A stretch of DNA of 64,000 nt from a virus: IMG/VR virus record IMGVR_UViG_3300022921_001386. One strand, 5' to 3'. Position numbers and translations under genes: made by a program. The notes below the pieces were generated by a model that saw nothing but the letters and a program-made list of their open reading frames with translations, made no database searches and was not told the DNA's origin. Of this stretch, positions 22,657 to 64,000 are shown one piece after another. Each line of letters begins with the position of its first letter. The stretch's first letter is position 1.

Positions 22657-22693
22657 TAATAGTCTGTGCGATAAGTATTTGCATGGACTATTA
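22657..22693 (+). promoter_or_regulatory. hairpin sequestering dnaJ start codon, with late-promoter-like ATAAGTA in the loop
   Basis: TAATAGTCTGTGCGA / TTGCATGGACTATTA pair over 15 bp with three G-U pairs. Confidence 0.55.
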
Positions 22694-40541: not shown

Positions 40542-40542
40542 T

Positions 40543-40962
40543 ATGAAAGTAGGTATTACATTTAGTGCATTTGATTTACTTCATGCCGGACACATCGGCA
40601 TGTTACGTGAAGCAAGAGCAAACTGCGATTATCTTATTGTAGGGTTGCAAACAGATCCTACAATCGATCGGGCCGATACCAAAAACAAACCAGTGCAAAC
40701 TCTAGTTGAACGCTATGCGCAACTTAATGCACTCAAGTTTATTGACGAGATTGTGCCATACGAAACTGAGCAGGACTTAATGGATATACTAGAGCTGTTT
40801 CAAATTGATGTAAGGTTCTTAGGCGAAGAATACAAAGAAGACGAGTTTAGTGGCAAAGATATATGTCGCAAGCGAGGTATTCAACTGCATTTTAACAAGC
40901 GTGATCACAGATTCAGCACAAGTGATTTACGCAAACGAGTTGCTGAAAGAGAGAACAAATGA
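40543..40962 (+). CDS. cytidylyltransferase (TagD/glycerol-3-phosphate CTase-like)
   Basis: FDLLHAGH, LIVGLQTD, RDHRFSTS. Confidence 0.85.
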   Translation: MKVGITFSAFDLLHAGHIGMLREARANCDYLIVGLQTDPTIDRADTKNKPVQTLVERYAQLNALKFIDEIVPYETEQDLMDILELFQIDVRFLGEEYKEDEFSGKDICRKRGIQLHFNKRDHRFSTSDLRKRVAERENK

Positions 40963-41150
40963 TTAAAGCATTTTGGACTGGGTTCAAACAAGGGTTTAAG
41001 CAAGGGTTTAAGCAGTTTTTTTGGATAGGTATAGCACTTGGTGTCGGAACATCACTAGGTAGTTGGAGTCATCCTTATGAACAGTGTAAGCGTATGTACG
41101 ACACGCCTGAAGATATTTCAGAGTGTGTTTGGATTAAGGAGGCTGAATAA
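40959..41150 (+). CDS. small membrane protein with GFKQ tandem repeat
   Basis: (GFKQ)x3 followed by a hydrophobic helix. Confidence 0.55.
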   Translation: MIKAFWTGFKQGFKQGFKQFFWIGIALGVGTSLGSWSHPYEQCKRMYDTPEDISECVWIKEAE

Positions 41151-41314
41151 TGAGTGAAGCAGCCGCAGCAATTGTGTTAGCGTTTAATGTAGGTGTTATG
41201 CTGGGCATTGGAGTAGCAACAGCAGAATGGAGCCTCATTTTTGGTGCTGCTGTATTACTGTTTGTAACTGTATGTTATTATCATAATTTTGTAAAACCCA
41301 AGGAGAATCCGTGA
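41150..41314 (+). CDS. small membrane protein (54 aa, not in ORF track)
   Basis: AAGGAGG RBS; two hydrophobic stretches. Confidence 0.6.
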   Translation: MSEAAAAIVLAFNVGVMLGIGVATAEWSLIFGAAVLLFVTVCYYHNFVKPKENP

Positions 41315-41484
41315 TGAGCAAATATACAAAAGCATTAACCGCCGAACAGTTGATACAATATATTGCTATTGATCGTCCTGAAATGTCACATGATAAAGTT
41401 AAGTGGCAGAGAGATCATTATATTAAAATCTGTCTTGAATGGTTAGAGGAGAATGTCAATGTGGACACTGTGGATCGTAAGTAG
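41314..41484 (+). CDS. small hypothetical protein (56 aa, not in ORF track)
   Basis: AAGGAG RBS, TGATG coupling. Confidence 0.55.
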   Translation: MSKYTKALTAEQLIQYIAIDRPEMSHDKVKWQRDHYIKICLEWLEENVNVDTVDRK

Positions 41485-41623
41485 CGTTATTGGTAGCGCA
41501 GAACCTAAATACACTCGATATGAAACTTTTGAAACTCAAAAAGAGTGCTTATTAGAACGAGCAGTACTTACTTCAACCTTTACACAAGGCGAAAGAGCAT
41601 TTTGCGAAGGAACAAATGAATAA
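41459..41623 (+). CDS. small hypothetical protein (54 aa, not in ORF track)
   Basis: GAGGAG RBS; MWTLWIV...FETQKEC...C. Confidence 0.55.
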   Translation: MWTLWIVSSVIGSAEPKYTRYETFETQKECLLERAVLTSTFTQGERAFCEGTNE

Positions 41624-42326
41624 ATTTATATTTGATGTGGACGGAACACTAACTCCGAGTAGGCAAAAGATTGATCCAACTTTTGAAAAGTTTTTTGAAT
41701 TGTTTTGTCGAGACAACGAAGTTTACCTTGTTACTGGCAGTGACTATCCTAAGACATTGGAGCAACTAGGTGAACGTATTGTAAACCAAGTAAAAGCTGT
41801 TTACAACTGTAGCGGCAATGATGTATGGCAGCATGGCAAAAACATCAAACGCAACAACTGGACACTTCCAGACGAGTGTCGTAAGTTTTTAGCAGGATGG
41901 ATTGAAGGTAGCGTGTTTCCAATCCGCACAGGCAATCACATTGAAGAACGACCAGGAACTGTAAACTTCTCGATTGTAGGACGTAACGCTACTCAAGAAC
42001 AACGTAAATTGTATGTAGAGTGGGATTTAGAACATCGTGAAAGAGAAAGCATTGCGTTGCAATTCAACATGATATACAAAGATCTTACTGCTACAGTAGG
42101 CGGAGATACCGGTATTGACATCTATCCTACAGGATATGACAAAGGTCAAATTATCAAAGATTTTAATCTAAGAAAAGATAAACTTTATTTCTTTGGTGAT
42201 AAAACATTGCCCGGCGGCAACGATGAACCGCTGGCAAAATTAATCAATCACACTTATCAAGTTAGAAACTGGCGAGACACTCACGAAAGACTTGGTTATT
42301 TTCAGGAGGCAAGGTTAGCAGGATGA
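41616..42326 (+). CDS. HAD-IIB phosphomannomutase-like enzyme
   Basis: FDVDGTLT, TGSD, IE.R...NFS..GR, FFGDK..PGGND. Confidence 0.85.
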   Translation: MNKFIFDVDGTLTPSRQKIDPTFEKFFELFCRDNEVYLVTGSDYPKTLEQLGERIVNQVKAVYNCSGNDVWQHGKNIKRNNWTLPDECRKFLAGWIEGSVFPIRTGNHIEERPGTVNFSIVGRNATQEQRKLYVEWDLEHRERESIALQFNMIYKDLTATVGGDTGIDIYPTGYDKGQIIKDFNLRKDKLYFFGDKTLPGGNDEPLAKLINHTYQVRNWRDTHERLGYFQEARLAG

Positions 42327-43078
42327 TTATTGCAGGATACGGTTTTGTAGGCAAGGCATACGAATTACTATTTAATGGTTTTCGTAGAGAAATAGTAGTA
42401 CACGATCCTCCCAAAGGTATGGTAGCAGACTTTGATAATACCAGTGCTGTTGTTGTTTGTGTGCCTACACCAGAATTAGAATCAGGAGCGTGTGACATCA
42501 GTGCTGTATACGATGTAATATCGCAGTGTAACAAAGATACTCCTATAATGATCAAAAGCACTATCAGTTTGCAAGGTTGGAAGTTTTTAAAAGAAACATT
42601 TCCTAATCATCGTTTGTGCTTTTCACCGGAGTTTTTACGTGCTGCAAACTACATGAACGATATTAAAAACTTGGACAGTGTTATTCTAAGTGGTGATACT
42701 GATTACTGGCGAGATCAATATAGTTACAATTGGCCTAAGATTAAAATCCACACCGTAATACCAGAAGAAGCTATTGCTATTAAATATTTCCGCAATGCAT
42801 TTTTAGCAACCAAGGTTAGTTTCTTCAACGAGATCTATGATTTTTGTACAGCATATGGAATCGACTTTGATCAAGTAAGGGGCGGGGTTGCAGCAGACAC
42901 CCGTATTGGAGATAGTCATACGTATGTATGGCCCAATGAAAATGTAAGAGGATTTGGAGGCTATTGTTTTCCAAAAGACACTAGTGCGCTATTAAAAATG
43001 GCAGCAGAAAAGAAAATAAATCTAAATACTCTTGAAGCAGCAGTTGAATACAATAATAAAATAAAAAATAATGCTTGA
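42323..43078 (+). CDS. UDP-glucose/GDP-mannose dehydrogenase family
   Basis: GYGFVG, VCVPTP, IKST, SPEFLR, KY..NAFLA.KVSF.NE, GFGGYCFPKD. Confidence 0.88.
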   Translation: MIIAGYGFVGKAYELLFNGFRREIVVHDPPKGMVADFDNTSAVVVCVPTPELESGACDISAVYDVISQCNKDTPIMIKSTISLQGWKFLKETFPNHRLCFSPEFLRAANYMNDIKNLDSVILSGDTDYWRDQYSYNWPKIKIHTVIPEEAIAIKYFRNAFLATKVSFFNEIYDFCTAYGIDFDQVRGGVAADTRIGDSHTYVWPNENVRGFGGYCFPKDTSALLKMAAEKKINLNTLEAAVEYNNKIKNNA

Positions 43079-43103
43079 CTTTCTACAAGTTAAACATTAT
43101 AAT
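43075..43103 (+). promoter_or_regulatory. sigma70-like promoter
   Basis: TTGACT-N17-TATAAT upstream of the clamp/dpdA genes. Confidence 0.75.
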
Positions 43104-43123
43104 AAAACATATAGGAGATAAAA

Positions 43124-43852
43124 ATGCAAGACATTCTACAAGATATCGTAAGCCATACGCACTCGTTGGGCTTTATTACAACACTAAAAGTTACAGCAGA
43201 AACAGAAACACAGATTGAAAGCATGGCAGACGATCGTAGTGTTATTATGACTGCAACTACAAACACGCCAGTTGGAGAATTTGTTGGTACGTTTGGCATG
43301 CCAGACTTGGGTAAGCTGTCGTATCATTTGAAGAATCCAGAATACAAAGAAAATGCTAGTATTAAAGTCGTACAAGCAGAACGCAATGGAGAAACTATTC
43401 CAACACACATTCACTTTGAAAACACAGCAGGCGATTTTGAAAATGATTATCGCTTTATGAACAAAGCAGTGATTGAAGAGAAACTTAAAAGTGTTAAGTT
43501 TAAAGGCAACAGCTGGAATGTTGAGTTTCAGCCAAGTATGGCAAGTATTGCACGTATGAAACTTATGTCAGGCGCACATTCAGAAGAAACTGTGTTCCAA
43601 GTTAAGACAGAAGATGACAACCTAAACTTTTACTTTGGAGACGAAGCAACACACGCTGGATCATTTACATTTGAACACGGCGTTGAAGGCACATTAACTC
43701 ATACATGGGCGTGGCCAGTTGCACAAACTATTGCTATCTTGAACTTGGATGGCGATAAAACAATGAGCATTACAGACCAAGGTGCTATGAAGATTTCAGT
43801 AGATAGCGGTATGGCCAAGTATGACTACATCCTTCCAGCACAGCAGAAGTAA
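43124..43852 (+). CDS. probable sliding clamp (gp45/PCNA-like)
   Basis: 242 aa; size and alpha/beta pattern of clamps; ends Y.YILPA like PCNA; polymerase and clamp loader present. Confidence 0.55.
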   Translation: MQDILQDIVSHTHSLGFITTLKVTAETETQIESMADDRSVIMTATTNTPVGEFVGTFGMPDLGKLSYHLKNPEYKENASIKVVQAERNGETIPTHIHFENTAGDFENDYRFMNKAVIEEKLKSVKFKGNSWNVEFQPSMASIARMKLMSGAHSEETVFQVKTEDDNLNFYFGDEATHAGSFTFEHGVEGTLTHTWAWPVAQTIAILNLDGDKTMSITDQGAMKISVDSGMAKYDYILPAQQK

Positions 43853-43853
43853 T

Positions 43854-44249
43854 ATGGAAGATTTTGATATCAACGAGTTTGCACGTATGTTTGACGCAGC
43901 ACTTGCGTCAGACAACCCTACTGTTAAAAAAGCACTGCGTAACTTTATGATGGTTACTGCTATTGTTCACTCAAAAGAACAAACCACGCCAGCGTTGACC
44001 ATAGGGCCATTGGAAAGACTGGTCAAAAAAGTAGAAGAGCTTGAGCGTATGGTGTATGAACTACAAAATAATCGCGTGACAACAGGTTATAAAGACAAGT
44101 ACCAGCGGGATTATTATAATAATACTTGGACATACGCACCTAATACTAGCACTACAAGCGGAACTATTAGTGGTACCAGTGTTGACAAAGTATGGTATGA
44201 TGAAGCAACTGACATTGTAGACCTACTAAAGGACTTAAAAATTAGATGA
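43854..44249 (+). CDS. hypothetical protein
   Basis: Coupled ORF. Confidence 0.6.
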   Translation: MEDFDINEFARMFDAALASDNPTVKKALRNFMMVTAIVHSKEQTTPALTIGPLERLVKKVEELERMVYELQNNRVTTGYKDKYQRDYYNNTWTYAPNTSTTSGTISGTSVDKVWYDEATDIVDLLKDLKIR

Positions 44250-45793: not shown

Positions 45794-45984
45794 ATTATGA
45801 TAGTCTTGAGGCACATTTAGATGAGCTTGTTAAAAAACATCGAAAACTTGATGAAGAAGTCGAGCAGTTGTCGACCCAGCATGTTAGTGCAGAACTAAGG
45901 CAACTAAAAACACAAAAACTTTGGCTCAAGGATGAAATACATCGTATACAAAAACAACTCAAAGGAAGTAACGGCCATGGATAG
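45790..45984 (+). CDS. DUF465/YdcH-like coiled-coil protein
   Basis: L...H..LD..V......L..LK..KL.LKDEI. Confidence 0.65.
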   Translation: MNYDSLEAHLDELVKKHRKLDEEVEQLSTQHVSAELRQLKTQKLWLKDEIHRIQKQLKGSNGHG

Positions 45985-46144
45985 TAAACAGATCCAACTT
46001 ACTAACTTAGAACTTGCACTAGAAGATCTTGATAAAATCATTGACAATATGAAAAAGAACAACTATAGTAAAGAAGAGTTAAATGAATACGTGAAAAAAC
46101 GTTGGAATGTTTGGAACGAAATGCATCAGGTAAAAAAACAATGA
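45977..46144 (+). CDS. hypothetical protein
   Basis: AAGGA RBS; coupled ORF. Confidence 0.55.
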   Translation: MDSKQIQLTNLELALEDLDKIIDNMKKNNYSKEELNEYVKKRWNVWNEMHQVKKQ

Positions 46145-46668
46145 AACGAATATATGACCAAGGCGACAAGATTGAAAACGTGCAATACTTTACAGGCACC
46201 GAAGTAGAACATACTCCGCAATATGGAAAACGCACACTGTTTGTTGTAGGTGTTAAAGATGCAGAAGAAGTAATTGCTACAGCAGAAGAAGCTGGGTGCA
46301 AACACATCTACCTTGGTGCTAATATGAGCTTTAATGTTACCAGCAATACTGAAAGCGAATGGCAACCTTGGGAAGCTATGGTATTTCCGTTGCTCAAAGA
46401 AGGATATTGGGTAACGCTAGATGTAGATGCGAACCAAGTAGAAGGGTTACTAGAAACTGGCTTTACAGAATACAACCGCTTTATTCCAATGATTAGTGTA
46501 AAGATTCCGTACATCGAACAACTCGGATACAATGCTTGTTTAAAAGTTGACGACAAAGACTTTGATGCAAGCAACCCGGGTGTTTGGGTACATCGTGTAC
46601 ATGATTTAAAAAATAAATCTGTGTTTACAGATTGGTCTAAATACACCACAGACACAATTATTAGTTGA
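46141..46668 (+). CDS. hypothetical protein within the deazaguanine cluster
   Basis: F.G.EVEHTP..G..TLFV; HIYLGAN; DD.DF..SNPGVW. Confidence 0.7.
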   Translation: MKRIYDQGDKIENVQYFTGTEVEHTPQYGKRTLFVVGVKDAEEVIATAEEAGCKHIYLGANMSFNVTSNTESEWQPWEAMVFPLLKEGYWVTLDVDANQVEGLLETGFTEYNRFIPMISVKIPYIEQLGYNACLKVDDKDFDASNPGVWVHRVHDLKNKSVFTDWSKYTTDTIIS

Positions 46669-46693
46669 CAAAATGACACAAGAATCGTATTAT
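46665..46693 (+). promoter_or_regulatory. sigma70-like promoter
   Basis: TTGACA-N17-TATTAT at the queD-like gene start. Confidence 0.55.
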
Positions 46694-47146
46694 AACTATA
46701 TGAAACGGCGCAGCAAAGAAGAGGACGCTAAATTGACAGAAGCAAGTACAACTATTAATGTACCCATGACAACAGCAAAACGTAGTATTTGGGTAACCTT
46801 TACCAAAGAGGGTATTCACAAATATCCAGCAGCACTAGAAGATCCTAAACTTGCTACTGGTGATGAGTATGATGTAAGTTTCTTAGGATACCCGCATCGA
46901 CATACTTTTCATTTTAAAGTGCAAATTGAAGTATTTCACAACGATCGTGATATTGAGTTTATTCAATTCAAGCGTTGGTTGGAAAACTTGTACAAAGATG
47001 ATGTATTGCAACTTGATTACCTATCATGTGAAATGATTTCAGATTCCTTGTACACACAGATTAACAGCAGATATCCCGGCCGGTTTGTTGTTATTGATGT
47101 CGCCGAAGATGGCGAAAACGGCTGTCAAATTGTTTACCCAGCATAA
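46673..47146 (+). CDS. queD: QueD/6-pyruvoyl-tetrahydropterin synthase-like T-fold protein
   Basis: EGIH..., PHRHTFHFKV, IEF, SCEM, V.EDGENG; true start may be downstream of 46673. Confidence 0.6.
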   Translation: MTQESYYNYMKRRSKEEDAKLTEASTTINVPMTTAKRSIWVTFTKEGIHKYPAALEDPKLATGDEYDVSFLGYPHRHTFHFKVQIEVFHNDRDIEFIQFKRWLENLYKDDVLQLDYLSCEMISDSLYTQINSRYPGRFVVIDVAEDGENGCQIVYPA

Positions 47147-47160
47147 AGGAATAAAGGTAA

Positions 47161-47361
47161 ATGACTATTACAAATCCAGTAGTAAACAAAATATTTAACG
47201 ATCTTGAAGAGTTCCACGACTTCTGTCGTACTGAAGGACACCCTTTTAACAAGGAAGATTTATATCGCAACGATCGTCGGCCGTGGATGGCCTTCCAGAA
47301 ATACAAAAACTGGCTACGTGCAAAAGCTCGCGGTGGCGAAAGAAAGCCTCGTAATGCGTAA
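47161..47361 (+). CDS. hypothetical protein
   Basis: IF.DLE....FC...G..F....LY. Confidence 0.6.
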   Translation: MTITNPVVNKIFNDLEEFHDFCRTEGHPFNKEDLYRNDRRPWMAFQKYKNWLRAKARGGERKPRNA

Positions 47362-48532: not shown

Positions 48533-48540
48533 GTAATAAT

Positions 48541-48957
48541 ATGTCAAATGTTGTTAGCATTCATAAAGCATACGCACCAAAGTGCTGTCATCCAAACTGT
48601 TCTACTCGGGTAGGATATCATAATAAAAAAAGAAAAACAGACGGCTCGTGGAGTTATAAATGGAAGGCATTTTGCGAATATCATCGTACTGATGTTGTTG
48701 GTAAAAGTCTTGTAGATGCATTTAAAGCTTCTCGAGGCGGATGTGAAAGCCAAATACTTGGATGGCCGTGCCCCGGTCACCATGGCGACTTAACTATTGA
48801 TCACTACGACGGCGACAAGCATAATAACAACGAAGATAACTTGTTGGTATTATGCCCAAATTGCCATGCAAAGAAAACAAAGTTGTATGGTGATAATCGA
48901 GTAAGGTATAATAATATTCAAGCATTGCCTGCTCACTTATGGGATGTAAAAGCATGA
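48541..48957 (+). mobile_element. free-standing HNH endonuclease gene
   Basis: DHYDGDKHNNNEDNLLVLCPNCH; inserted between glycosyltransferase and galE. Confidence 0.75.
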
Positions 48958-49826
48958 GAGTATTGGTCACAGGCGCAACTGGTTATATTGGTAGCCATGT
49001 TTGTAAACTATTAAAAGAGCACGGACATCATGTTACTGCTTGGGATATTAACATTCACGGTGAATACAATGACATCATGGCATACTGTGACCAATACTCG
49101 AGCTCTGATATTACAAAGTTTGTACACGGCTCGTATGATGCTGTTGTACACTTAGCAGGACGCAGTGTGGTGCCGCAGAGCTTGTTAGAGCCCACAGAGT
49201 ACTATAGAGTAAATGTAATGGGCACTGCTAACTTGTTAGAGCGTGTACAAACTGATCACATACTGTTTGCTAGTACCAGTAGTGCTTGGGAAATGGCTTC
49301 GCCTTATGCTAGAAGCAAAGTAGCAGCAGAAGATGTAATCAAGGAGAAAGCCAATGGATACACAATCTTTAGATTTTTTAACGTATCTGGTACTGACGGC
49401 GTTAATCGTCAACTAGGCGATCCTACCCATCTTATTCGTGTTGCTGCTATGGTGGCTGCTGAGAAACTACCCGACATTAAGATCTTTGGTACGGACTATG
49501 ATACTAGGGATGGCACTTGTATTCGTGATTATATTCATGTTGTTGATTTGGCTCGTGCCATTGTCAACGGAGTGGAACGAGGTCCTGCCAACACACCATA
49601 CGAATGTCTTGGTTCTAACGTAGGATACAGTGTGCGTGAAGTAATCAATACCATGCAGCAAGTCACTGGTAAAAAGTTAAATACTATTAAAGCAGAACGC
49701 AGAGAAGGTGATGCTGTATCTAGTGTTGTAGATAATCTTAGTGATTTAGTAACATTAGAAAAAAGCATCGAAGATATGTGTTTAGATCAATACACCCTGG
49801 AGATTAGAAAAAATGGAAAAACTTAA
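48954..49826 (+). CDS. galE: UDP-glucose 4-epimerase-like NAD-dependent epimerase
   Basis: VTGATGYIGSH, YARSK, RFFNV, IFGTDYDTRDGTCIRDYIHVVDLA. Confidence 0.88.
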   Translation: MRVLVTGATGYIGSHVCKLLKEHGHHVTAWDINIHGEYNDIMAYCDQYSSSDITKFVHGSYDAVVHLAGRSVVPQSLLEPTEYYRVNVMGTANLLERVQTDHILFASTSSAWEMASPYARSKVAAEDVIKEKANGYTIFRFFNVSGTDGVNRQLGDPTHLIRVAAMVAAEKLPDIKIFGTDYDTRDGTCIRDYIHVVDLARAIVNGVERGPANTPYECLGSNVGYSVREVINTMQQVTGKKLNTIKAERREGDAVSSVVDNLSDLVTLEKSIEDMCLDQYTLEIRKNGKT

Positions 49827-50040
49827 TAAACTCACATTACAAATAGTAGAGATGTTAGATAATGGCGATCTTATGGGATGCTATAGTTTATTTGAAGCAG
49901 AGATAAGAGATATTATACCAACTTTAGATCAAGAATCAGAAATAGGAAAAACGTGGCTACATCAAGTTAAACTGATCGACGACGAAGACTGGGGCGGAGT
50001 AATGGAAAATATGGAAAATATTAGAAAGTTTGTTGAATAA
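49813..50040 (+). CDS. hypothetical protein
   Basis: GGAG RBS, coupled ORF. Confidence 0.55.
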   Translation: MEKLNKLTLQIVEMLDNGDLMGCYSLFEAEIRDIIPTLDQESEIGKTWLHQVKLIDDEDWGGVMENMENIRKFVE

Positions 50041-50360
50041 TGGAAGAAGATACTATTACTATTAGTAGTGACAATGAATATACGTTTGACATCGCTGATT
50101 TAACAGTTGATACCATTGATATTAGTAGTATTACATCAAGTACTGTTAGTACTATTACACTTGAAGGCACACACTGGTCAGACGGGATTACTTGGGAACA
50201 AGTTGAGTTCGAAGATAGTATGCCCAGTGTTGCCAAAGTAGAAGATATGTGCAATGATTATCCGGCATTGGCAACAGCATACGAAAACTTTAAAACTATC
50301 TACTCTCTAGTACATCAAGACTGGAAAGGCAAACAAAATGATGATGCGCATCCATTCTAA
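50040..50360 (+). CDS. hypothetical protein
   Basis: MC..YPAL..AYENFKT.Y.LV..DW. Confidence 0.6.
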   Translation: MEEDTITISSDNEYTFDIADLTVDTIDISSITSSTVSTITLEGTHWSDGITWEQVEFEDSMPSVAKVEDMCNDYPALATAYENFKTIYSLVHQDWKGKQNDDAHPF

Positions 50361-50862
50361 TATAACACCAGATTGGAATATTGATGATTACAAATCATTA
50401 AGCTTCAAACGTGATACTGTAAAAGGGCAAACTACAGTACAGGAATACTTTCGAGTAGGACATCAGCCTGGCCGAATGACAATGCTCAACTATTTTGAAC
50501 CTAACCCTATGCCTAGTAGTGTTGATTATGTTAAAACATTTTTCAGCGATTTAGTTAATGTTACTGCGGCGATTAATGTGTTTGAACCTGGACACTACTT
50601 ACCATTACATCGAGACAACTATAGAAAATATCAAAGTGTTGCTAAAGAGATTTTAAAAGACAGAGGCATAAATGCAATATACCGATATGTTGTTATGCTT
50701 GAAGATAGTGTTCCTGGGCAAATGATGCATATTGGAAGTACTATACATCATACATGGAGCGCTGGCGATGTATTTGGTTGGGTTGGTGACGAAATGCATA
50801 CATTTTATAATATGAGTTTAAAGGATCGATATGCAATACAAATTACAGGAATACAACCGTAG
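50338..50862 (+). CDS. 2OG-Fe(II) dioxygenase/cupin-like protein
   Basis: PG..LPLHRD...W..GD.....D.MH...N....RYAIQITG (HxD...H...R). Confidence 0.7.
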   Translation: MMMRIHSNITPDWNIDDYKSLSFKRDTVKGQTTVQEYFRVGHQPGRMTMLNYFEPNPMPSSVDYVKTFFSDLVNVTAAINVFEPGHYLPLHRDNYRKYQSVAKEILKDRGINAIYRYVVMLEDSVPGQMMHIGSTIHHTWSAGDVFGWVGDEMHTFYNMSLKDRYAIQITGIQP

Positions 50863-52108
50863 TGATGTTTTTTTAGATAACTGTTTGGTTATACAAATAA
50901 AAGGTCAAACTCGATTTGTAGATGAAAAATATAATATACTAAACAATCTCAACAACTATATTGGATGTGATCAAATGTATAAAATGAGTTTTTTAAGTCA
51001 TTATGATGGAAACTTTATACAAATACACGATATGGGACATCTTCCATACTTGGAGAATTTAAATCTAAGCTCTATTGATATTAATGAACTAAACAAAAAT
51101 AAGCTAACTATTTTTCTCACTGAACAAATAATTCATACTGATAACGATTATTGTAGAATATTACTAGGAACAGATGATACTGTAAGCACCTTAACGTCTG
51201 GCATTCCTTACAATACTACAAACACTATTTGGTCGCCCGAACTTGACAGTATTGAAATATTTGTAAAAAATAATAATCTAACCAATGTTTCAGTTTGTGT
51301 AAGTTTTGATGACATCACTGATATTTACAAAGACAGATACAGTTTTAACTTATATCGAAATGATGCTTGTTTAGATGCACTAAACAACTTATATAAATCA
51401 TTTGATGAGGTAGAACATATTCGACCTGTTGACATTAACAAAAAGTTTTGGTGTGCAAACTGGAGATATAGTTCTCATAGACATCTTATTACAGCATATG
51501 CTAGTACACTTGACACTGAATATAGTTGGGGATTTATTGACGACGACTTGAAAGTTTTAAAAAATTTATGGTTAGATTTAGAAAACTTTAAATTCAAAAA
51601 TAGCATTGTTGATAGATTAGAATATTTAAACAAAAACAATAGAAGTATAGATATACCAACTACGTCGATGGAGATTGATGGCAACATACTTGACGAAGCT
51701 AAACGTCTACAAGAAATACCAGCTGGACCATATGATACTAATCAATATGCTAGTAGTGATTTATTTAAAAATACATTTTGTTCAATTGTTAATTTAAGTA
51801 CATTTGCAGAGCCGTTTCCCTGCTACGATGAAAAACCACTAAATGCAATATTTAACTTACGTCCATTTATATTATGTGGACCACCGGGCAGTTTGGCACT
51901 TATGCGTAAAGATGGGTTTAAAACGTTTGGAGATTTTTGGGACGAATCATACGACAATGAGTTGGATCATACCAAACGTTTAGAAAAAATATTCAAACTA
52001 ATAGATGAGATAGATAGTTGGAGCATACGTGATTGTCAAGAAATATATGCCAACATGATTCCAACACTATTTGAAAACTATCATAAATTTAAAAAACCAA
52101 ACTTATGA
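50831..52108 (+). CDS. hypothetical protein, possible glycosyltransferase-related
   Basis: C-terminal EK....I....PFI..G....L..MR..GFKTF..FWDESYD family motif. Confidence 0.5.
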   Translation: MQYKLQEYNRSDVFLDNCLVIQIKGQTRFVDEKYNILNNLNNYIGCDQMYKMSFLSHYDGNFIQIHDMGHLPYLENLNLSSIDINELNKNKLTIFLTEQIIHTDNDYCRILLGTDDTVSTLTSGIPYNTTNTIWSPELDSIEIFVKNNNLTNVSVCVSFDDITDIYKDRYSFNLYRNDACLDALNNLYKSFDEVEHIRPVDINKKFWCANWRYSSHRHLITAYASTLDTEYSWGFIDDDLKVLKNLWLDLENFKFKNSIVDRLEYLNKNNRSIDIPTTSMEIDGNILDEAKRLQEIPAGPYDTNQYASSDLFKNTFCSIVNLSTFAEPFPCYDEKPLNAIFNLRPFILCGPPGSLALMRKDGFKTFGDFWDESYDNELDHTKRLEKIFKLIDEIDSWSIRDCQEIYANMIPTLFENYHKFKKPNL

Positions 52109-53034
52109 AATGTGCAGCGTTATACAATCATACTAACATAAGGGGAGGTGATCGCATCTTCCCTTGCTGCCGTTTTAAAAACAGCATACAATGGTTTGAC
52201 GGTGACGTAAACAACATACTAAACAGTTACAGTTACAATCTACTTAGAAGTAGAATGGAATCTGGCGAAAAGTTACCAGAATGTGCCAAGTGCTGGCATG
52301 AAGAAAATCTAGGCAAACCTAGTCTTAGACAATGGTTCAACGAAAACTACAGTACAGATGAAATCAAACTTAGATACCTTGAGGTAGGATTTGACAACAT
52401 TTGCGATCTAACCTGTGACGGATGTTGGGAAGAATGGAGCAGTAGTTGGTGGGTTAAAAAGAATCCCGGACTTCCTCCCAAACAAGGTATTACTAGTACA
52501 ACTGAATTTAGAAACATTCCAGAAAGCATTGAAAAGGTTGTGTTTTTAGGCGGTGAGCCTCTAATGACCAATAGGCACAGACGCTTCTTGGAAAGTTTTG
52601 ATACGTTAGAACATTTAGAAGTAGAATACTTTACAAACGGTATGCATAGTTTAACACAAGAGGATTACGCTGTATTGAGTAAATGCAAACGTGTACATTT
52701 CACTGTAAGCATAGATGGTGTCGGTGCACTAAATGAACAAGTACGTGGAAACAGTATTTGGAGTAAGGTTCTAAAAACACTAGACGAGATTGCTGACACA
52801 TTTGATTATACTATTCATACTACAATACATAAAAATAACTGGCATGGATTGCCTGATATGTACCAATGGACAAAAAAATATGCAAAATGGACAACAAATG
52901 TCTTGACATATCCTAAAAAATTAGATATAATAAACTTAGAGCAGTGTGACAAACAAAAACTTTTGGATATCTTAGATGAGTTTGATATTCCAAATAAACA
53001 ATATATAGGCACACACTTAAAAGGAGACGCATAA
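52105..53034 (+). CDS. radical SAM protein with N-terminal SPASM/twitch-like Cys cluster
   Basis: PCC...CAKCW; CDLTCDGC; GGEPL; TNG; SIDG. Confidence 0.85.
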   Translation: MKCAALYNHTNIRGGDRIFPCCRFKNSIQWFDGDVNNILNSYSYNLLRSRMESGEKLPECAKCWHEENLGKPSLRQWFNENYSTDEIKLRYLEVGFDNICDLTCDGCWEEWSSSWWVKKNPGLPPKQGITSTTEFRNIPESIEKVVFLGGEPLMTNRHRRFLESFDTLEHLEVEYFTNGMHSLTQEDYAVLSKCKRVHFTVSIDGVGALNEQVRGNSIWSKVLKTLDEIADTFDYTIHTTIHKNNWHGLPDMYQWTKKYAKWTTNVLTYPKKLDIINLEQCDKQKLLDILDEFDIPNKQYIGTHLKGDA

Positions 53035-53645
53035 TGGATATGCGAAGTTATGAAGATTGGCAAGTACACGATGCTACTGAAGGATCAGTAGAAGATGTTA
53101 CTTGGAACAGCAATGACCTTCTTACGTTACCGTGGGAAGCAACATATATGACAGACGAAATTCCCGAAGATAGTAGTTGGGATACATTTGCAACAAAAAA
53201 CAAAAAAGCATTAGAAGCAATGTACGCACAATGGGGAGTACCTAAAGAAGGTAGCTTACACTATATGAGCATACGTCCTGCACTTACAAAAGGACTAGGC
53301 AGTATTATTTCTCCGTATGCACATATGACATTTAACTATAACTTTTTAAAACTTACACCGGGTTGTAGTTTAATGTGGCACTTTGATACATATGCTACAT
53401 TTGTAAGATACAACAACATTGCAGAAGACGATGTTCACAATGTATGTAGAACTGTTATTATGATGAAAGACTGGGATAGAGGACAAGTATTACAAGTAGG
53501 TGATGAAGTTTACACACATTGGCAAGAAGGTGATACGTACACTTGGAAAGGCGATACGTGGCACGGTATGGCAAACTTTGGTCCTAGTGACATAGTTGTT
53601 GCACAAGTAACATTTTTGGATGAAAATGACCGATATACCCAATGA
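53034..53645 (+). CDS. 2OG-Fe(II) dioxygenase/cupin-like protein
   Basis: PG..LMWHFD...W..GD...W....WHG.AN.G; paralogue of 50338-50862. Confidence 0.7.
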   Translation: MDMRSYEDWQVHDATEGSVEDVTWNSNDLLTLPWEATYMTDEIPEDSSWDTFATKNKKALEAMYAQWGVPKEGSLHYMSIRPALTKGLGSIISPYAHMTFNYNFLKLTPGCSLMWHFDTYATFVRYNNIAEDDVHNVCRTVIMMKDWDRGQVLQVGDEVYTHWQEGDTYTWKGDTWHGMANFGPSDIVVAQVTFLDENDRYTQ

Positions 53646-54525
53646 TAAACGCAGCATGGATTTTGGCAGTGCATTTGCTATAGCAGATCCAGAAACTATA
53701 AAGCTGTTGCGTCAAACTTTTAATTTTACCGATCTTAACAGCGATAGTATCATTGATGAGTTTTTGAATGAATATGACACTTGGATTAAAAGTGGCACAC
53801 TAAATGTATTTACTGGATTAGAAGATTTCAAATACAAATGCTATAGTAATGGTACTACTGAAAGTTTTGATAAGTTTTACATGAAAAATTCCAAGCGTAG
53901 GTTTCGCTGCTACAAAGGCGAGTATATGTATCATAAACTTGCATGGCGTGATAAGTTTGATTGGCAATGGTTAGAAGAGGCCCCGTTGCACAAAAACGAT
54001 GCTGTTGTTATAAGTTTGCCGTTTGCAGACACTGGCGACAAGCATACATTGTATCATGAACTTATGCGCAAGTGCAGCAAGCTAAACATACCTGTGTTAG
54101 TAGATTGTGCATACTACGGGGCTTGTAGGCATATACATATTGATTTAGCGTATCCGTGTATTACAGATGTTACATTTTCGTTAAGCAAAACATTCCCTGT
54201 TGCATATGCACGTATCGGAATACGCTATACTAGAGTTGACGATGATGACACTATGTTTGTGTATCATAAAATAAACTACAACAATAAAATAGGTGCATTG
54301 CTAGGATTAGAATATTTTAAGAACTTTACACCCGATTATATATCAAACAAATATCTTGACAAACAAACAGAATTCTGTAATAATACTAATGTGTTACCAA
54401 GTAAGACAGTATTATTTGGTATTGACAACAATAATAAATACCCTCAATACAACCGAGGCGGAACTAGTAATCGACTAAGTTTCCACAAGCAATATATTAA
54501 AGGACTAGACTTTGCCAGTACATAG
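53620..54525 (+). CDS. PLP-dependent enzyme (fold type I, aminotransferase-like)
   Basis: NGTTESF, VLVDCAY, FSLSKTF....RIG. Confidence 0.7.
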   Translation: MKMTDIPNDKRSMDFGSAFAIADPETIKLLRQTFNFTDLNSDSIIDEFLNEYDTWIKSGTLNVFTGLEDFKYKCYSNGTTESFDKFYMKNSKRRFRCYKGEYMYHKLAWRDKFDWQWLEEAPLHKNDAVVISLPFADTGDKHTLYHELMRKCSKLNIPVLVDCAYYGACRHIHIDLAYPCITDVTFSLSKTFPVAYARIGIRYTRVDDDDTMFVYHKINYNNKIGALLGLEYFKNFTPDYISNKYLDKQTEFCNNTNVLPSKTVLFGIDNNNKYPQYNRGGTSNRLSFHKQYIKGLDFAST

Positions 54526-55567
54526 TAATAACGATTGGGATCCACTAGAAGAAATTATTATTGGCACAGCAGAAAACTGTGTACATCCTACTATGAATAA
54601 GAGTACACACAGTTTTATCTATGGCGGAGAACAACTTGAAGATATCAAACAGTTTGACGGTCAACCTATTGAACAATGGATTGTAGATGAAGCAAACGAA
54701 GACTTAGAAGGTCTTGAAAAATGTTTGCAAGGGCTAGGTGTTAAAACATTACGTCCTGAACCAATAGATCACAACAAGAAGTTTAGCACACCAGAATGGG
54801 AAACAACAGGCTGGTATACTTTTTGTCCACGTGACTTACTACTACCATTGGACAATATGATTATTGAATGTCCAAGCCCTATGCGAGCAAGATACTTTGA
54901 AACTAGAGCATACTATAAACACTTGTATCGTTGGATGCAAGAAGGCACACAATGGATCAATGCTCCTAAGCCTATCCTAACAGATGACAACTATCAACTA
55001 GAAGACAGGCGTGATGCTACACTAGTAAACAAAGAGATTATTTTTGATGCACCTAACATTGTGCGACTAGGCAGAGACTTGCTGTGTCAAGTAAGCAACA
55101 GTGGTAATCAACTAGGCTTTCAGTGGCTAAAGACTATCTTAGAACCCAAGGGATATCGTTTGCACGTTGCAGAGAAGTATTATAGCTTTGCACACTTTGA
55201 CAGTACAGTACTACCTTTACGCCCAGGTTTGGTACTATTAAACGCAGGAAGACTAAGCGAGGATTGGTATCCACCTATTTTCAAAGACTGGGATAAGATC
55301 TGGGTAGGCGAAGAAGACTTGCACGTTCCGGCTGCAAACACAGGTGTTGCTCCATGTAGTCCTTACATTGGACTTAACTTTTTAAGTGTTAACGAAGAAC
55401 TGGTTATTGTAGACGAAAAGCAAGAGTCATTAAGACGCATCTTGGGCAAGCATGGTATTGATACTATTGGGTTGCCCATGCGTCAAGCACGTAGTATGAG
55501 CGGCGGCTTTCACTGTGCAACACTAGATACAAAACGCAAAGGTACACTAGAGGATTATTTTCAATGA
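54512..55567 (+). CDS. L-arginine amidinotransferase family (glycine/inosamine-phosphate type)
   Basis: WDPLEEIIIG, CPRD, FDA, HFDST, GGFHCATLD; TTG start after AAAGGA. Confidence 0.88.
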   Translation: MPVHSNNDWDPLEEIIIGTAENCVHPTMNKSTHSFIYGGEQLEDIKQFDGQPIEQWIVDEANEDLEGLEKCLQGLGVKTLRPEPIDHNKKFSTPEWETTGWYTFCPRDLLLPLDNMIIECPSPMRARYFETRAYYKHLYRWMQEGTQWINAPKPILTDDNYQLEDRRDATLVNKEIIFDAPNIVRLGRDLLCQVSNSGNQLGFQWLKTILEPKGYRLHVAEKYYSFAHFDSTVLPLRPGLVLLNAGRLSEDWYPPIFKDWDKIWVGEEDLHVPAANTGVAPCSPYIGLNFLSVNEELVIVDEKQESLRRILGKHGIDTIGLPMRQARSMSGGFHCATLDTKRKGTLEDYFQ

Positions 55568-55746
55568 CCATGAACCCACGGCCAAACAAAAACACAGATC
55601 AAGAAATGATTGATGAGTTTTTAAACAAGGGTGGAAAGATCACCAAAGGCAAAACTAAAGCAATGCCCAGTGAACTTGGCATCAGTAACAATCAATGGAA
55701 CAACAAACTTACTAAAGCAGAAAAAGATGCAAAGGACGGCAAGTAA
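55564..55746 (+). CDS. hypothetical protein
   Basis: IDEFLNKGGKITK motif. Confidence 0.6.
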   Translation: MTMNPRPNKNTDQEMIDEFLNKGGKITKGKTKAMPSELGISNNQWNNKLTKAEKDAKDGK

Positions 55747-55970
55747 TGTTACATACTATTGAAGATCTTATACATCGTATTAATTTAATGAAAGACAAAG
55801 CAATCTTATTGCATCGAGTTCGCAACGAGTTTGCTGAGATTTCTTATAAAGAATATGACAAAATAACATGTCAAAATCTTATTGCCGATATTCAAAGCAT
55901 TGCTCGAGGTATTGCTAACGATACCCAAGGCGATGAAATAAAAACAGAAATGGATGAATGGAAGAAATGA
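55746..55970 (+). CDS. hypothetical protein
   Basis: Coupled ORF. Confidence 0.55.
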   Translation: MLHTIEDLIHRINLMKDKAILLHRVRNEFAEISYKEYDKITCQNLIADIQSIARGIANDTQGDEIKTEMDEWKK

Positions 55971-57046
55971 ACAACTATATTTTTACTAGCGAAAGTGTTA
56001 GCGAAGGACACCCAGATAAGGTTGCAGACCAAATCTCGGACGCACTCGTTGATGCTGGGCTAAAGGCAGGTGATACTACAACTCGCGTTGCTATTGAAAC
56101 ACTTGTAACTACCAATCATGTAACATTGGCAGGCGAAGTAAAAAACTTTAACGTGAACAAAGAAGAAGTCAAAGAAATTGTGCGCAACACGGTTCGTGAG
56201 ATTGGTTATGAACAAGAAGGGTTTCATTGGGATAAACTAAACATCTACAATGAAATCCACAATCAAAGTGCAGACATTGCGCTGGGCACAGATGACTTTG
56301 GTGCAGGCGATCAGGGTATTATGTTTGGTTATGCCTGCAACGACAACGATGCATACTTGCCAGCACCAATCTATTATGCACACGAAATACTTAAAGAACT
56401 TAAACAACAGCGTCAGCATGTTTTAGGTCCAGATGCTAAGTCACAAGTAAGTGTCGAGTATGAAGGCGGCAAAGTCAAACGTATTGACCAAGTTGTTATC
56501 AGTACACAACACGGAGAAGGTCAAGTTGAACAAGCAAGAAACATTAGCAAACTTGCTGCAATGAATGTATTAGGAGATTTAGTAGATGAAAAAACTGTAT
56601 GGCATCTCAATCCAACGGGTAACTTTGTTATTGGTGGTCCAGATGGTGATGCTGGTGTCACTGGGCGCAAAATTATCGTTGATACTTATGGCGGTTTTGC
56701 CCCTCACGGTGGTGGCGCTTTTAGTGGAAAAGACCCTACAAAAGTAGATCGCAGTGCAGCATATATGGCACGTTGGCTTGCTAAAAACGTAGTAGCAGAT
56801 GACATGGCAGACTGGTGCCAGATACAGTTAAGCTATGCTATTGGCGTTAAAGAACCTACAAGTATCTATGTAGATTCAAATGGACACAATCGTAGTATCG
56901 AGCGTTTCATTCGAGAGAACATTGATCTAACACCTAAAGGAATCATTGACAGATTTGATTTATTCAAGTATACTAACTATAGTAAGAACTGCACATACGG
57001 ACACTTTGGCAACAAAGATGTACCTTGGGAAAAAATTGGATGGTAA
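55967..57046 (+). CDS. metK: S-adenosylmethionine synthetase
   Basis: FTSESVSEGHPDK, GAGDQG, GRKIIVDTYGG, GGGAFSGKDPTKVDRS. Confidence 0.97.
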   Translation: MNNYIFTSESVSEGHPDKVADQISDALVDAGLKAGDTTTRVAIETLVTTNHVTLAGEVKNFNVNKEEVKEIVRNTVREIGYEQEGFHWDKLNIYNEIHNQSADIALGTDDFGAGDQGIMFGYACNDNDAYLPAPIYYAHEILKELKQQRQHVLGPDAKSQVSVEYEGGKVKRIDQVVISTQHGEGQVEQARNISKLAAMNVLGDLVDEKTVWHLNPTGNFVIGGPDGDAGVTGRKIIVDTYGGFAPHGGGAFSGKDPTKVDRSAAYMARWLAKNVVADDMADWCQIQLSYAIGVKEPTSIYVDSNGHNRSIERFIRENIDLTPKGIIDRFDLFKYTNYSKNCTYGHFGNKDVPWEKIGW

Positions 57047-57594
57047 AAAAATACTACACATATGATGATGTACACAATGCTGCAATGCATATTGTATTGC
57101 AAATGTACAAAGACAACTGGCGGCCAGACTATGTTGTAGGCATTACAAGAGGCGGATTGCCTTTGGCATTGCGTATTAGTAACCTGCTAGATTGTCGTAT
57201 GGAAACACTCAAAGTTAAACTGCGAGACGGTAAGCCAGGCGAAGAATGCGAAAGCAACTGCTGGATGGCAGAAGATGCATTTGGATATGTGTCAGAGTTA
57301 GACCGCGACGGTATTATGGAAAATGTAAAAAGTGATTCAAATGCAAAGAAAAATATTCTCGTTGTAGATGACATTAATGATACTGGTGCTACATTTAACT
57401 GGATTAAACAAGACTGGATGAGCAGTTGTTTGCCCGACGATCCTAACTGGGATACTGTATGGGGCGGTAATGTAAGATTTGCTACTATGACTGAAAATTT
57501 TAGTAGTCAGTTTCCTGACGTCAACTATTGGTGGCACGAAGTAAATAAGTCAGAAGAAAATACCTGGCTAGTATATCCATGGGAATATGATTAA
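57040..57594 (+). CDS. purine phosphoribosyltransferase (Gpt/Xpt-like)
   Basis: GITRGGL, ILVVDDINDTGAT, W..YPWE. Confidence 0.85.
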   Translation: MVKKYYTYDDVHNAAMHIVLQMYKDNWRPDYVVGITRGGLPLALRISNLLDCRMETLKVKLRDGKPGEECESNCWMAEDAFGYVSELDRDGIMENVKSDSNAKKNILVVDDINDTGATFNWIKQDWMSSCLPDDPNWDTVWGGNVRFATMTENFSSQFPDVNYWWHEVNKSEENTWLVYPWEYD

Positions 57595-57603
57595 GGAGAT
57601 AAT

Positions 57604-57747
57604 ATGAGTTGTGGTTGCGGAAGATCGCCAACAGGTAGATGTGTTGGCTGGCATAGTTTGACAGAAGAAGAATATCATGTTAAACTAGATGAATACAATA
57701 AAAGACAAGCATTAAAGGAGAAAAAAAATGCAGGAACAACTAGTTAA
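57604..57747 (+). CDS. small CDGSH-like Cys3His protein (47 aa, not in ORF track)
   Basis: TAAGGAG RBS; MSCGCGRSPTGRCVGWH. Confidence 0.6.
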   Translation: MSCGCGRSPTGRCVGWHSLTEEEYHVKLDEYNKRQALKEKKNAGTTS

Positions 57748-57928
57748 AGCGGCGCGGATGCATGCCGAAGGAGAACTCGAAAGAGCAAAAACAAACATCT
57801 TGGTATACATGAATCACAGTGTAGGTATTGGTGAACACAGTGATATTGTAGAAGCTATTCAAGAAGAACTTGATAAAATGGCAGCAGCAACTGATCGTAT
57901 TGAAATGTTAAACGTACATTTTAGTTGA
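57728..57928 (+). CDS. hypothetical protein
   Basis: AAGGAG RBS; VGIGEHSDI motif. Confidence 0.65.
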   Translation: MQEQLVKAARMHAEGELERAKTNILVYMNHSVGIGEHSDIVEAIQEELDKMAAATDRIEMLNVHFS

Positions 57929-57953
57929 CAAAAGATCTAAATAATGTTACTAT
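57925..57953 (+). promoter_or_regulatory. sigma70-like promoter
   Basis: TTGACA-N17-TACTAT upstream of folE-queE. Confidence 0.7.
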
Positions 57954-57994
57954 AAACCTATATAGACATCCACGTCTATAACTCGGAGAAATAA

Positions 57995-58726
57995 ATGATA
58001 AAAAATAATACTGGACTTGATACTGATACTGTAGATACAGTTAAAATAAGTGAAGTCGTTCGCGAGCGTTTGCGTAAAAACGGCGTTCGCTTTTTTGCTA
58101 ATGACAACATTAGCGAACATATTAGTGAATTTGAGTTACAAGAGATTCAAAATGAACTAGCCTACAAGTTTCAAGATGTACTTGAAACATTGATTATCGA
58201 TACTGATAACGATCCTAATAGCGAAGGCACTGCAAAGCGACTTGCTAAAATGTATATTAATGAACTTATGCAAGGACGTTATTTTAAAGCACCTAATGCA
58301 ACTTCGTTTCCAAATGAAACAGACGACCCATATGACGGTATGTTAGTTGTACGCAGTGAACTAAAAAGTGTTTGTTCACATCACCACCAGCCTGTAACAG
58401 GTGTTGCGTATATTGGTATTCTTGCAGCTGATAAACTTATTGGTCTTAGCAAATATACACGTATTGCACAATGGTGTGCTAGACGTGGAACATTGCAAGA
58501 AGAACTGTGTATGGACATTACTAAAGAAATTATGAAAGTAACAGGTGCTAAAGACTGTGGCGTTTATATCCAAGCTATACACGGTTGCTGTGAGAATCGT
58601 GGCATTATGGCACATAGTAGTCTTACACAAACAAGTGTGCTTAAAGGTGCATTTAAAACCGATCCAGGTACAAAGAAAGAGTTCTTTGACAACATTAAAC
58701 TACAGCAGGAGTTTGCACCGAGATGA
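57995..58726 (+). CDS. folE: GTP cyclohydrolase I
   Basis: T..RLAKMY, SVCSHHH, GLSK..R, LQEE, HGC...RG. Confidence 0.93.
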   Translation: MIKNNTGLDTDTVDTVKISEVVRERLRKNGVRFFANDNISEHISEFELQEIQNELAYKFQDVLETLIIDTDNDPNSEGTAKRLAKMYINELMQGRYFKAPNATSFPNETDDPYDGMLVVRSELKSVCSHHHQPVTGVAYIGILAADKLIGLSKYTRIAQWCARRGTLQEELCMDITKEIMKVTGAKDCGVYIQAIHGCCENRGIMAHSSLTQTSVLKGAFKTDPGTKKEFFDNIKLQQEFAPR

Positions 58727-59619
58727 AACTAAGATATTCAGAAGCATTTTACAGTGTGCAAGGTGAAGGTAAGTTCGTAGGAGTACCTAGTGTATTCCTA
58801 CGCACATTCGGTTGTAACTTCCGTTGTATGAACTTTGGTGTTGACAAAAGTGTCGGCGATCGTTGGGAACAACACGCACGAGGCGAACGTTATAATGCAG
58901 AAGTAAAAGCATTGCTCGATGCAGGTGTACACGAAACAACTGAAAAGTTTGAGGACTTGCCTATCATTCACACAGGTTGTGATACATACGCAAGTATCTA
59001 TCCTGAGTTTAAAGACTTTAACAAGTTGGCAACTATTGACGAAGTAGTCGAACACTTGCTTAGTTTGTTGCCAGAAGGCAAATGGACTATGGATAATGGT
59101 CAAGACGTGCATTTGATCTTGACAGGCGGCGAACCACTGCTTGCTTGGCAACGACTGTATGTCGAGTTATTTGAACACCCAGGTATGAAGGATCTAAAAA
59201 ATGTCACAATCGAAACCAACACTACACAGCATCTACATGATGACTTCTACAATTACCTCAACAATCACGAAACAATTAAACTCACTTTTAGCTGCTCACC
59301 AAAGCTATCCGTTTCGGGCGAGTCTTGGGATGATGCTATTAAGCCTGATGTTGCTCGTGAGTATTCCCTTGTGGATGGCAGCGATATGTATTTTAAGTTT
59401 GTTGTTGCTGATCAAGAAGATGTTGATGAAGTTACTCGGGCTGTTCAGCAATACAGGGATTCCGGGTTGGAATGTCCAGTATATCTTATGCCAATGGGTG
59501 GACGCAGTGAAGAATATTCCCTCAACGTTAAAGAAGTGGCGGAACTCTGTATGGAAAGAGGATGGCGATTCACTCCCCGGCTCCACATTAGCTTATTCGG
59601 AAATGCCTGGGGGACTTAA
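58723..59619 (+). CDS. queE: 7-carboxy-7-deazaguanine synthase (radical SAM)
   Basis: EAFYSVQGEG, FLRTFGCNFRC...CDT, TGGEP, ETN, SPK, RLH. Confidence 0.88.
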   Translation: MKLRYSEAFYSVQGEGKFVGVPSVFLRTFGCNFRCMNFGVDKSVGDRWEQHARGERYNAEVKALLDAGVHETTEKFEDLPIIHTGCDTYASIYPEFKDFNKLATIDEVVEHLLSLLPEGKWTMDNGQDVHLILTGGEPLLAWQRLYVELFEHPGMKDLKNVTIETNTTQHLHDDFYNYLNNHETIKLTFSCSPKLSVSGESWDDAIKPDVAREYSLVDGSDMYFKFVVADQEDVDEVTRAVQQYRDSGLECPVYLMPMGGRSEEYSLNVKEVAELCMERGWRFTPRLHISLFGNAWGT

Positions 59620-63940: not shown

Positions 63941-64000
63941 ATGGCTACTAAAGATACAGCAAGTAAACTAAAAAACTGGACGCCAAATCCAGATATTACT
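63941..64000 (+). CDS. start of next gene (3'-truncated)
   Basis: GAGG RBS, ATG, open to window end. Confidence 0.55.
   Translation, partial: MATKDTASKLKNWTPNPDIT

Follow-up and report, generated by a model that had tools for sequence, protein, structure and literature searches.

What base does a phage place in its DNA when the genes of a 7-deazaguanine pathway stand beside a gene for a glycosyltransferase? This question is raised by a 64 kb stretch of DNA of an uncultured marine jumbo phage (IMG/VR record IMGVR_UViG_3300022921_001386), hereafter called the window, whose positions serve as coordinates throughout, and in particular by the gene cluster located immediately downstream of its DNA polymerase gene (Table 1). 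In our judgment, the locus is fairly probably a DpdL-type, QueC-independent 7-deazaguanine DNA-modification module joined to a dedicated glycosyltransferase, which most likely attaches a sugar to this base. It should be stressed that no published pathway accounts for the glycosyltransferase. A preceding analysis based on the letters of the window (hereafter, the sequence-only reading) had proposed a 7-deazaguanine DNA-modification locus built around an enzyme with a transglycosylase fold, and this was borne out, as were most of the gene identities that it listed, which were confirmed by family models or by the sequences of solved structures.

The phage is related to PA5oct and Phosso, and its genome is about 350 kb, as estimated from the nearest record (a 68 kb fragment with a CheckV completeness of 19%). 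Megablast of the locus found no close relative among cultured phages. The search with the transglycosylase yielded 240 viral contigs, which shows that the family is abundant, and 80 of the 240 were retrieved for counting gene linkage; the denominators given below are the related contigs with enough flanking DNA. Two relatives, G002 (330 kb, 93% complete) and G003, were used as proxies for the genome beyond base 64000.

The transglycosylase, P0001, carries a DSGGFQ motif and has the TIM-barrel fold of the tRNA-guanine transglycosylase (TGT) family. It was identified by fold search only: searches with P0001 against the models of Pfam, PHROGs, and NCBIfam and against PDB sequences (phmmer) gave no match, the profile of 43 members of its family found no TGT among PDB sequences, and neither P0001 nor any of these 43 proteins matched the Pfam TGT model (PF01702) at E 0.1. 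Within the 43 homologues, residues D100, S101, G103, D145, G224, H260, G263, and D293 are invariant, and, judged from the order of the motifs without residue-level superposition, D100, D145, and D293 would be equivalent to Asp102, Asp156, and Asp280 of TGT. The zinc site of TGT (CxCxxC...H) is absent, as no cysteine was found among the invariant or near-invariant columns of the same alignment. Comparison of profiles linked P0001 with gp123, the DpdA of Acidovorax phage ACP17, over the catalytic core (hhalign 96.9%, E 1.5e-10) and, only partially, with DpdA3 of phage phiST (CGPG_00065; hhalign 82%, 83 columns). On the strength of this kinship, which is weaker with phiST, P0001 was filed as a divergent TGT-fold DpdA. 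The context of the gene, which lies between the clamp gene and dpdL in the replication module of the phage, suggests that the enzyme carries out its base exchange on DNA and not on tRNA. The P0001 family is large, with 920 clusters at E 0.001.

The sequence-only reading had taken a nearby gene for a QueD-like one, and it is here reassigned to DpdL, which was defined as a QueD paralogue with the CxxxHGH motif changed to LxxxHRHxF (PMC10516641). In the window protein this signature reads L71-G-Y-P-H75-R-H77-T-F79, and in 11 homologues L71, H75, H77, and F79 never vary and R76 only rarely does. The protein is 35% identical to phiST CGPG_00067 (tblastn, E 2e-10; family hidden Markov model (HMM), E 2.7e-23), and tblastn and HMM searches tied it also to proteins of phi13:1 and phi19:2, as well as to ACP17 gp125, PA5oct gp166, and others; phiST, phi13:1, and phi19:2 are phages with 2'-deoxy-7-deazaguanosine (dDG) in their DNA (PMC10516641). 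No significant match was obtained by hhalign between the DpdL family and canonical phage QueD, nor between the DpdL profile and PDB, and the predicted identity is based on the published signature and the homology to phiST. The gene was kept in all 69 related contigs, and relatives of the protein form more than 8000 clusters, with Tara Oceans among the sources.

Since the supposed QueD is DpdL, the QueC-independent logic of the locus is one that has already been published. In phiST, FolE, QueD, QueE, DpdL, and DpdA3 lead to dDG (Nucleic Acids Res 2023, PMC10516641), so that the claim of a new QueC-less system does not hold, and the base expected from the DpdL route is 7-deazaguanine, not the 7-carboxy-7-deazaguanine (CDG) that had been proposed as the inserted base. 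The window shares with phiST a cluster that lacks QueC and lies beside the DNA polymerase gene, with FolE, QueE, a DpdL bearing the LxxxHRHxF motif, and a TGT-fold transglycosylase. It differs in that its transglycosylase is only distantly related and much longer (515 versus 259 aa), in that no canonical QueD was found in it, and in that it adds the glycosyltransferase, the P0152 protein, an epimerase, a phosphoribosyltransferase (PRTase), and sugar-nucleotide genes, all of which phiST lacks. The DpdA1 and DpdA2 systems of bacteria and phages, which place preQ0, preQ1, or archaeosine in DNA (Nat Commun 2019, PMC6884629), resemble the module proposed here in their post-replicative guanine exchange by an enzyme of the TGT family that draws on FolE, QueD, and QueE. 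They differ in that they need QueC (with or without QueF, Gat-QueC, or ArcS) and in that sequence models suffice to recognise their DpdA, whereas the cluster in the window has no QueC and its transglycosylase was recognised by fold only.

Between dpdA and dpdL lies the gene of the P0152 family, which was kept in 70 of 70 related contigs; hhalign revealed no kinship between this family and phiST CGPG_00066, which occupies the same position. In phage Phosso, the slot before dpdL is taken by a 178-aa protein annotated as a "glycosylase" (L105, 7400-7933), which the P0152 HMM does not match.

Of the enzymes supplying the precursor, FolE, whose motifs are intact, was matched by its family models, and QueE by several NCBIfam models below the equivalog cut-off (best 50 bits versus 260). 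In nine phage QueE proteins, including that of phiST, residues E15 (QGEG), R27, C31, C35, C86, and T134-G135-G136-x-P138 (TGGEP) are invariant, and the window protein is 38% identical to QueE of the T4-like cyanophage BUCT-ZZ01. About 50 additional residues separate the second from the third cluster cysteine in its iron-sulfur cluster loop; this insertion is common to PA5oct, BUDD, and BUCT-ZZ01 and is not present in ACP17 and phiST. Canonical QueD (CxxxHGH; PF01242) was found neither by Pfam among the scanned open reading frames (ORFs) of the window, nor by a phage-QueD HMM in the window, nor by Pfam in G002 or G003. The PRTase, which among NCBIfam families comes closest to xanthine PRTase (E 1.2e-7), was kept in 28 of 30 related contigs and adjoins QueE in BUCT-ZZ01.

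The evidence for the involvement of a sugar is the linkage of the glycosyltransferase with the module. The window protein scores 19.6 bits, i.e., under the Pfam cut-off of 26.4, and its BUCT-ZZ01 orthologue, the best match in a cultured phage (70% identity), scores 26.5 and 28.3 bits, over the Pfam cut-offs; in eight sequences the (D/E)x7E motif and residues R258, K263, and P265 are conserved. The PDB sequence search with this protein gave nothing useful. Its start is most likely at 47354 and not at 47204, as the upstream part of the long ORF contains stop codons in the relatives. The gene was kept in 57 of 57 related contigs and the epimerase gene in 46 of 46, and in six other lineages (PA5oct, ACP17, BUCT-ZZ01, Phosso, BUDD/X1, and BCSR5) a homologous glycosyltransferase gene lies within 8 kb of dpdL, mostly adjacent to it; the proposed link of the sugar genes with dpdA was in this way upheld. 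Conservation of the genes upstream of the clamp was lower, i.e., 73/80 contigs for the cytidylyltransferase-like gene, 65/80 for the phosphomannomutase (PMM) gene, and 62/80 for the dehydrogenase gene. The first of these encodes a candidate activator of a sugar-1-phosphate. The dehydrogenase consists of the N-terminal and central domains only, lacks the C-terminal domain, and carries the motifs GYGFVG (GxGxxG) and GGYCFPKD.

Three cultured phages allow closer comparison. In BUCT-ZZ01 the order of genes is QueE, PRTase, QueD, FolE, a second glycosyltransferase, a DSGGLQ transglycosylase (hhalign 90%), DpdL, and the glycosyltransferase. In ACP17, FolE, a P0152 homologue, DpdA, glycosyltransferase gp124, DpdL, and QueE follow in a row. 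The Pseudomonas phage PA5oct has the same replication-module synteny as the window, with the clamp, DpdA gp168 (34% identity), glycosyltransferase gp167 (homologous to the window protein, hhalign 99.7%), DpdL gp166 (60%), and QueE. Unlike the window, ACP17 and PA5oct possess canonical QueD genes, and neither has the epimerase, the PMM/dehydrogenase set, or the amidino cassette at the locus. PA5oct DNA resists restriction enzymes in a pattern pointing to a modified G, although no mass spectrum of the base was given; the same paper notes QueE and a pterin synthase (PMC12191111), and a 2021 survey lists a system of deazaguanine synthesis and incorporation in this phage (PMC7824862). In the searchable literature we found no published report of the final DNA base of ACP17 or PA5oct, and literature searches found no glycosylated deazaguanine in DNA.

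From the enzyme identities, folds, and linkage described above, we infer the chemical steps, the sugar acceptor, and the final base as follows. FolE and QueE would convert GTP to CDG, and either the host or a phage protein that escaped recognition would provide the 6-carboxytetrahydropterin synthase step. DpdL would then remove or rework the carboxyl group of CDG (decarboxylation, according to the published proposal), and the TGT-fold DpdA would exchange guanine in the finished phage DNA for the resulting base. The PRTase most likely recycles the released guanine, and MetK may feed the radical S-adenosylmethionine (SAM) enzymes. Finally, the glycosyltransferase, together with P0152 and the sugar-nucleotide enzymes, most likely puts a sugar on the deazaguanine, which would give a base that has not yet been described.

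Several observations weigh against this scheme. 7-Deazaguanine has no obvious C7 hydroxyl or amine that could accept a sugar. Six of the 12 examined DpdL lineages (phiST, RHph_I1_18, Ahp1, Bakedbeans, D479, and MA9V-3) have no glycosyltransferase within 8 kb of DpdL, and phiST makes plain dDG without one. In addition, canonical QueD was not found in the window or in G002, which leaves a gap of one step in CDG synthesis; QueC-like genes elsewhere in the relatives make a preQ0- or amide-type base an alternative; and the decarboxylase activity of DpdL is a published prediction only (PMC10516641).

The lack of an obvious acceptor and the lineages without a glycosyltransferase speak for a different explanation, according to which the module makes only plain dDG, and the glycosyltransferase and sugar genes, standing beside dpdL merely as members of the same early/replication block, act on virion proteins, on sugars of the host envelope, or on another base. 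It is in agreement with this that phage glycosyltransferases have many targets. However, a glycosyltransferase gene is found a few genes from that of DpdL or DpdA in seven otherwise unrelated lineages, one of which is a T4-like cyanophage with a copy 70% identical to that of the window, and its conservation in the window clade is complete (57 of 57 contigs). As for another base, no hydroxymethyl-pyrimidine pathway was seen, and the thymidylate synthase, encoded beside dihydrofolate reductase, looks canonical (E 1.7e-100). We regard the plain-dDG explanation as rather unlikely.

More remote is the explanation in which QueC-like enzymes encoded elsewhere in the genome provide preQ0, 7-amido-7-deazaguanine (ADG), or another amide, which DpdL and the glycosyltransferase then work upon. 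The window itself has neither a Pfam match to QueC nor a homologue of the six QueC-like proteins found in relatives. These relatives, at 79-92% DpdA identity, encode past the equivalent of the window end several divergent QueC-like PP-loop paralogues (217-251 aa) that combine an SGGxDS loop with the zinc motif CGxCxWCxER at the C-terminus and for which QueC is the best Pfam family (15.6-28.3 bits versus a cut-off of 22). The absence of QueC is therefore established for the 64 kb window only, and the sequence-only description of the system as QueC-less holds within this limit. On the other hand, the QueC-like genes lie 25-60 kb downstream of dpdA; several of them occur close to genes of twitch radical SAM enzymes, in some cases as immediate neighbours, and none stands beside the deazaguanine genes. 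Moreover, the published DpdL phages lack QueC (PMC10516641). Such a route is improbable. It is worth mentioning, as a separate observation, that the pairing of a QueC-like gene with an N-twitch radical SAM gene recurs in both jumbo-phage relatives, which hold several copies of this arrangement (L094:16259-17969 and L095:2936-6784 in G002, and L098:10644-12378 in G003).

Finally, the linkage of a purine-type PRTase with FolE and QueE, in the window and in BUCT-ZZ01, could point to a deazapurine entering DNA, or acting as a free nucleotide or nucleoside similar to toyocamycin or tubercidin, through the PRTase and without base exchange, which is highly improbable given that a transglycosylase whose catalytic motifs are intact accompanies the module throughout, that salvage of the released guanine is a simpler account of the PRTase, and that the modules of PA5oct, ACP17, and BUDD have no clear PRTase.

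Returning to the favoured module with its dedicated glycosyltransferase, we tentatively predict, with less than even confidence, that the phages carrying DpdA, DpdL, and the glycosyltransferase together (e.g., the marine clade, PA5oct, ACP17, BUCT-ZZ01, and Phosso) hold glycosylated 7-deazaguanine in their DNA. A C-glycosidic bond might join the sugar to the electron-rich pyrrole carbon, or DpdL and P0152 might provide a handle for its attachment. All sugar-decorated DNA bases that we know of are pyrimidines, and such a base, if confirmed, would be the first purine analogue carrying a sugar to be found in a genome and a new chemical class of DNA hypermodification. The prediction is directly testable, since the trio is present in the cultured phages PA5oct, ACP17, BUCT-ZZ01, and Phosso, and it has a bearing on the evasion of restriction by jumbo phages and on the nucleases that sense DNA modification and have been reported to attack PA5oct. 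If true, it would also explain why dpdL and dpdA of ACP17 alone failed to give dDG in E. coli, a result for which its authors considered that other enzymes may be needed (PMC10516641).

Table 1. Features of the deazaguanine locus and its surroundings (window coordinates)
Feature	Position	Strand	Remarks
Family-B DNA polymerase	37854..40541	+	Pfam DNA_pol_B E 3e-38 and exonuclease domain
Cytidylyltransferase-like nucleotidyltransferase	40528..40962	+	Pfam CTP_transf_like E 1.6e-12; HAGH (HxGH) motif
Eukaryote-type phosphomannomutase (HAD family)	41616..42326	+	Pfam PMM E 5.4e-29
Short UDP-glucose/GDP-mannose 6-dehydrogenase-like protein	42323..43078	+	Pfam UDPG_MGDP_dh central domain E 1.6e-25
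Probable sliding clamp	43124..43852	+	phrog_12062; replication protein
DpdA-like DNA guanine transglycosylase (P0001), 515 aa	44246..45793	+	Long, divergent TGT-fold member
Conserved protein of no assigned function, 175 aa (P0152 family)	46141..46668	+	Between dpdA and dpdL
DpdL, 157 aa, QueD paralogue, proposed CDG decarboxylase	46673..47146	+	LxxxHRHxF signature
GT-B (GT4-like) glycosyltransferase, ~392 aa	47354..48532	+	Weak Pfam Glycos_transf_1
HNH homing endonuclease	48541..48957	+	Pfam HNH E 3e-4; between glycosyltransferase and epimerase
NAD-dependent sugar epimerase/dehydratase (GalE-like)	48939..49826	+	Pfam Epimerase E 1e-37
Tailoring cassette, six genes	50338..55567	+	Variable insertion
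Two putative cupin/2-oxoglutarate (2OG) oxygenases	50338-50862, 53034-53645	+	HxD...H motifs; one Pfam hit E 0.03
N-twitch radical SAM enzyme	52105-53034	+	NF033640, 189 bits versus cut-off 170
Putative pyridoxal phosphate (PLP) enzyme	53620-54525	+	Weak aminotransferase hit and SLSK motif
StrB1-type amidinotransferase, 351 aa	54512-55567	+	E 4.6e-85 to 1bwd, residues 5-349
S-adenosylmethionine synthetase (MetK)	55958..57046	+	All three Pfam domains, E 1e-34 to 3e-58
Purine-type phosphoribosyltransferase	57025..57594	+	Pfam Pribosyltran E 2e-13; VVDDINDTGAT motif
GTP cyclohydrolase I (FolE)	57995..58726	+	Pfam E 3.2e-38; NCBIfam FolE E 3.4e-39
QueE (CDG synthase)	58723..59619	+	Five NCBIfam QueE models, E 1e-9 to 1e-13

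The sequence-only reading had also counted amidino, radical SAM, and PLP genes among the tailoring enzymes of the pathway. They form a cassette whose order is a 174-aa cupin/2OG-like protein, a 425-aa protein without assigned function, the radical SAM enzyme, a 203-aa cupin/2OG-like protein, the PLP aminotransferase-like enzyme, and the amidinotransferase. Its four-gene core (radical SAM, cupin, PLP, and amidinotransferase) was found in only 10 of 30 related contigs, and the gene of the 425-aa protein in five of 30; in the 330-kb relative the cassette is missing at the deazaguanine locus, and a distant copy is located elsewhere. The distribution of the core marks the cassette as a lineage-specific insertion and excludes it as a conserved tailoring arm of the pathway, which leaves the earlier proposal unsupported. 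The radical SAM and amidinotransferase calls themselves were confirmed, while the oxygenase and PLP calls remained at the level of motifs and weak hits, and PDB sequence searches with the 203-aa, 425-aa, and PLP-like proteins gave nothing useful.

The cassette probably makes a guanidino compound of its own. The amidinotransferase resembles over its full length StrB1 (1bwd), the L-arginine:inosamine-phosphate amidinotransferase of streptomycin biosynthesis, shows similarity also to HsvA, SxtG, and AGAT (E ~1e-60 to 1e-54), and contains the active-site Cys segment GGFHCATLD. Unlike StrB1, it is part of a phage cassette that also encodes a twitch radical SAM enzyme, two cupin-like proteins, and a small PLP enzyme, and it is not consistently linked to the deazaguanine genes. 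Among the relatives it is 92-96% identical, as compared with 71-85% for the cassette neighbours, which indicates an unusually strong constraint or a recent spread of the cassette.

As for the rest of the region, the plus strand encodes every gene from 33.7 kb onwards as far as the window extends. The family-B DNA polymerase anchors the replication module and stands outside the modification pathway; it shares 42-49% identity with its counterparts in Phosso, Atu_ph07, and Vibrio phage 2.275.O. The clamp-like gene was kept in all 80 contigs, and its product is 32% identical to the "DNA polymerase III sliding clamp beta" of Phosso and 36% identical to PA5oct gp170. The ORF at 43821-44249 (142 aa) was considered as a polyamine synthase and rejected, its match being weak (E 0.003), its sequence of low complexity, and its occurrence limited to 19 loci. 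The HNH gene is probably a homing endonuclease insertion, as it was present in only four related loci.

Further upstream, the window contains a DNA polymerase III alpha-like ORF of fragment size (7456-8013), a B12-binding radical SAM enzyme of 625 aa (8010-9887), a distant copy of which is present in G002, PhoH (17866-18603), encoded, like few other genes, on the minus strand, and a full DnaJ (22683-23489). At 11119-12644, a further radical SAM gene comes after a gene of the nitroreductase family and overlaps it slightly, and two nitroreductase copies were found in G003.

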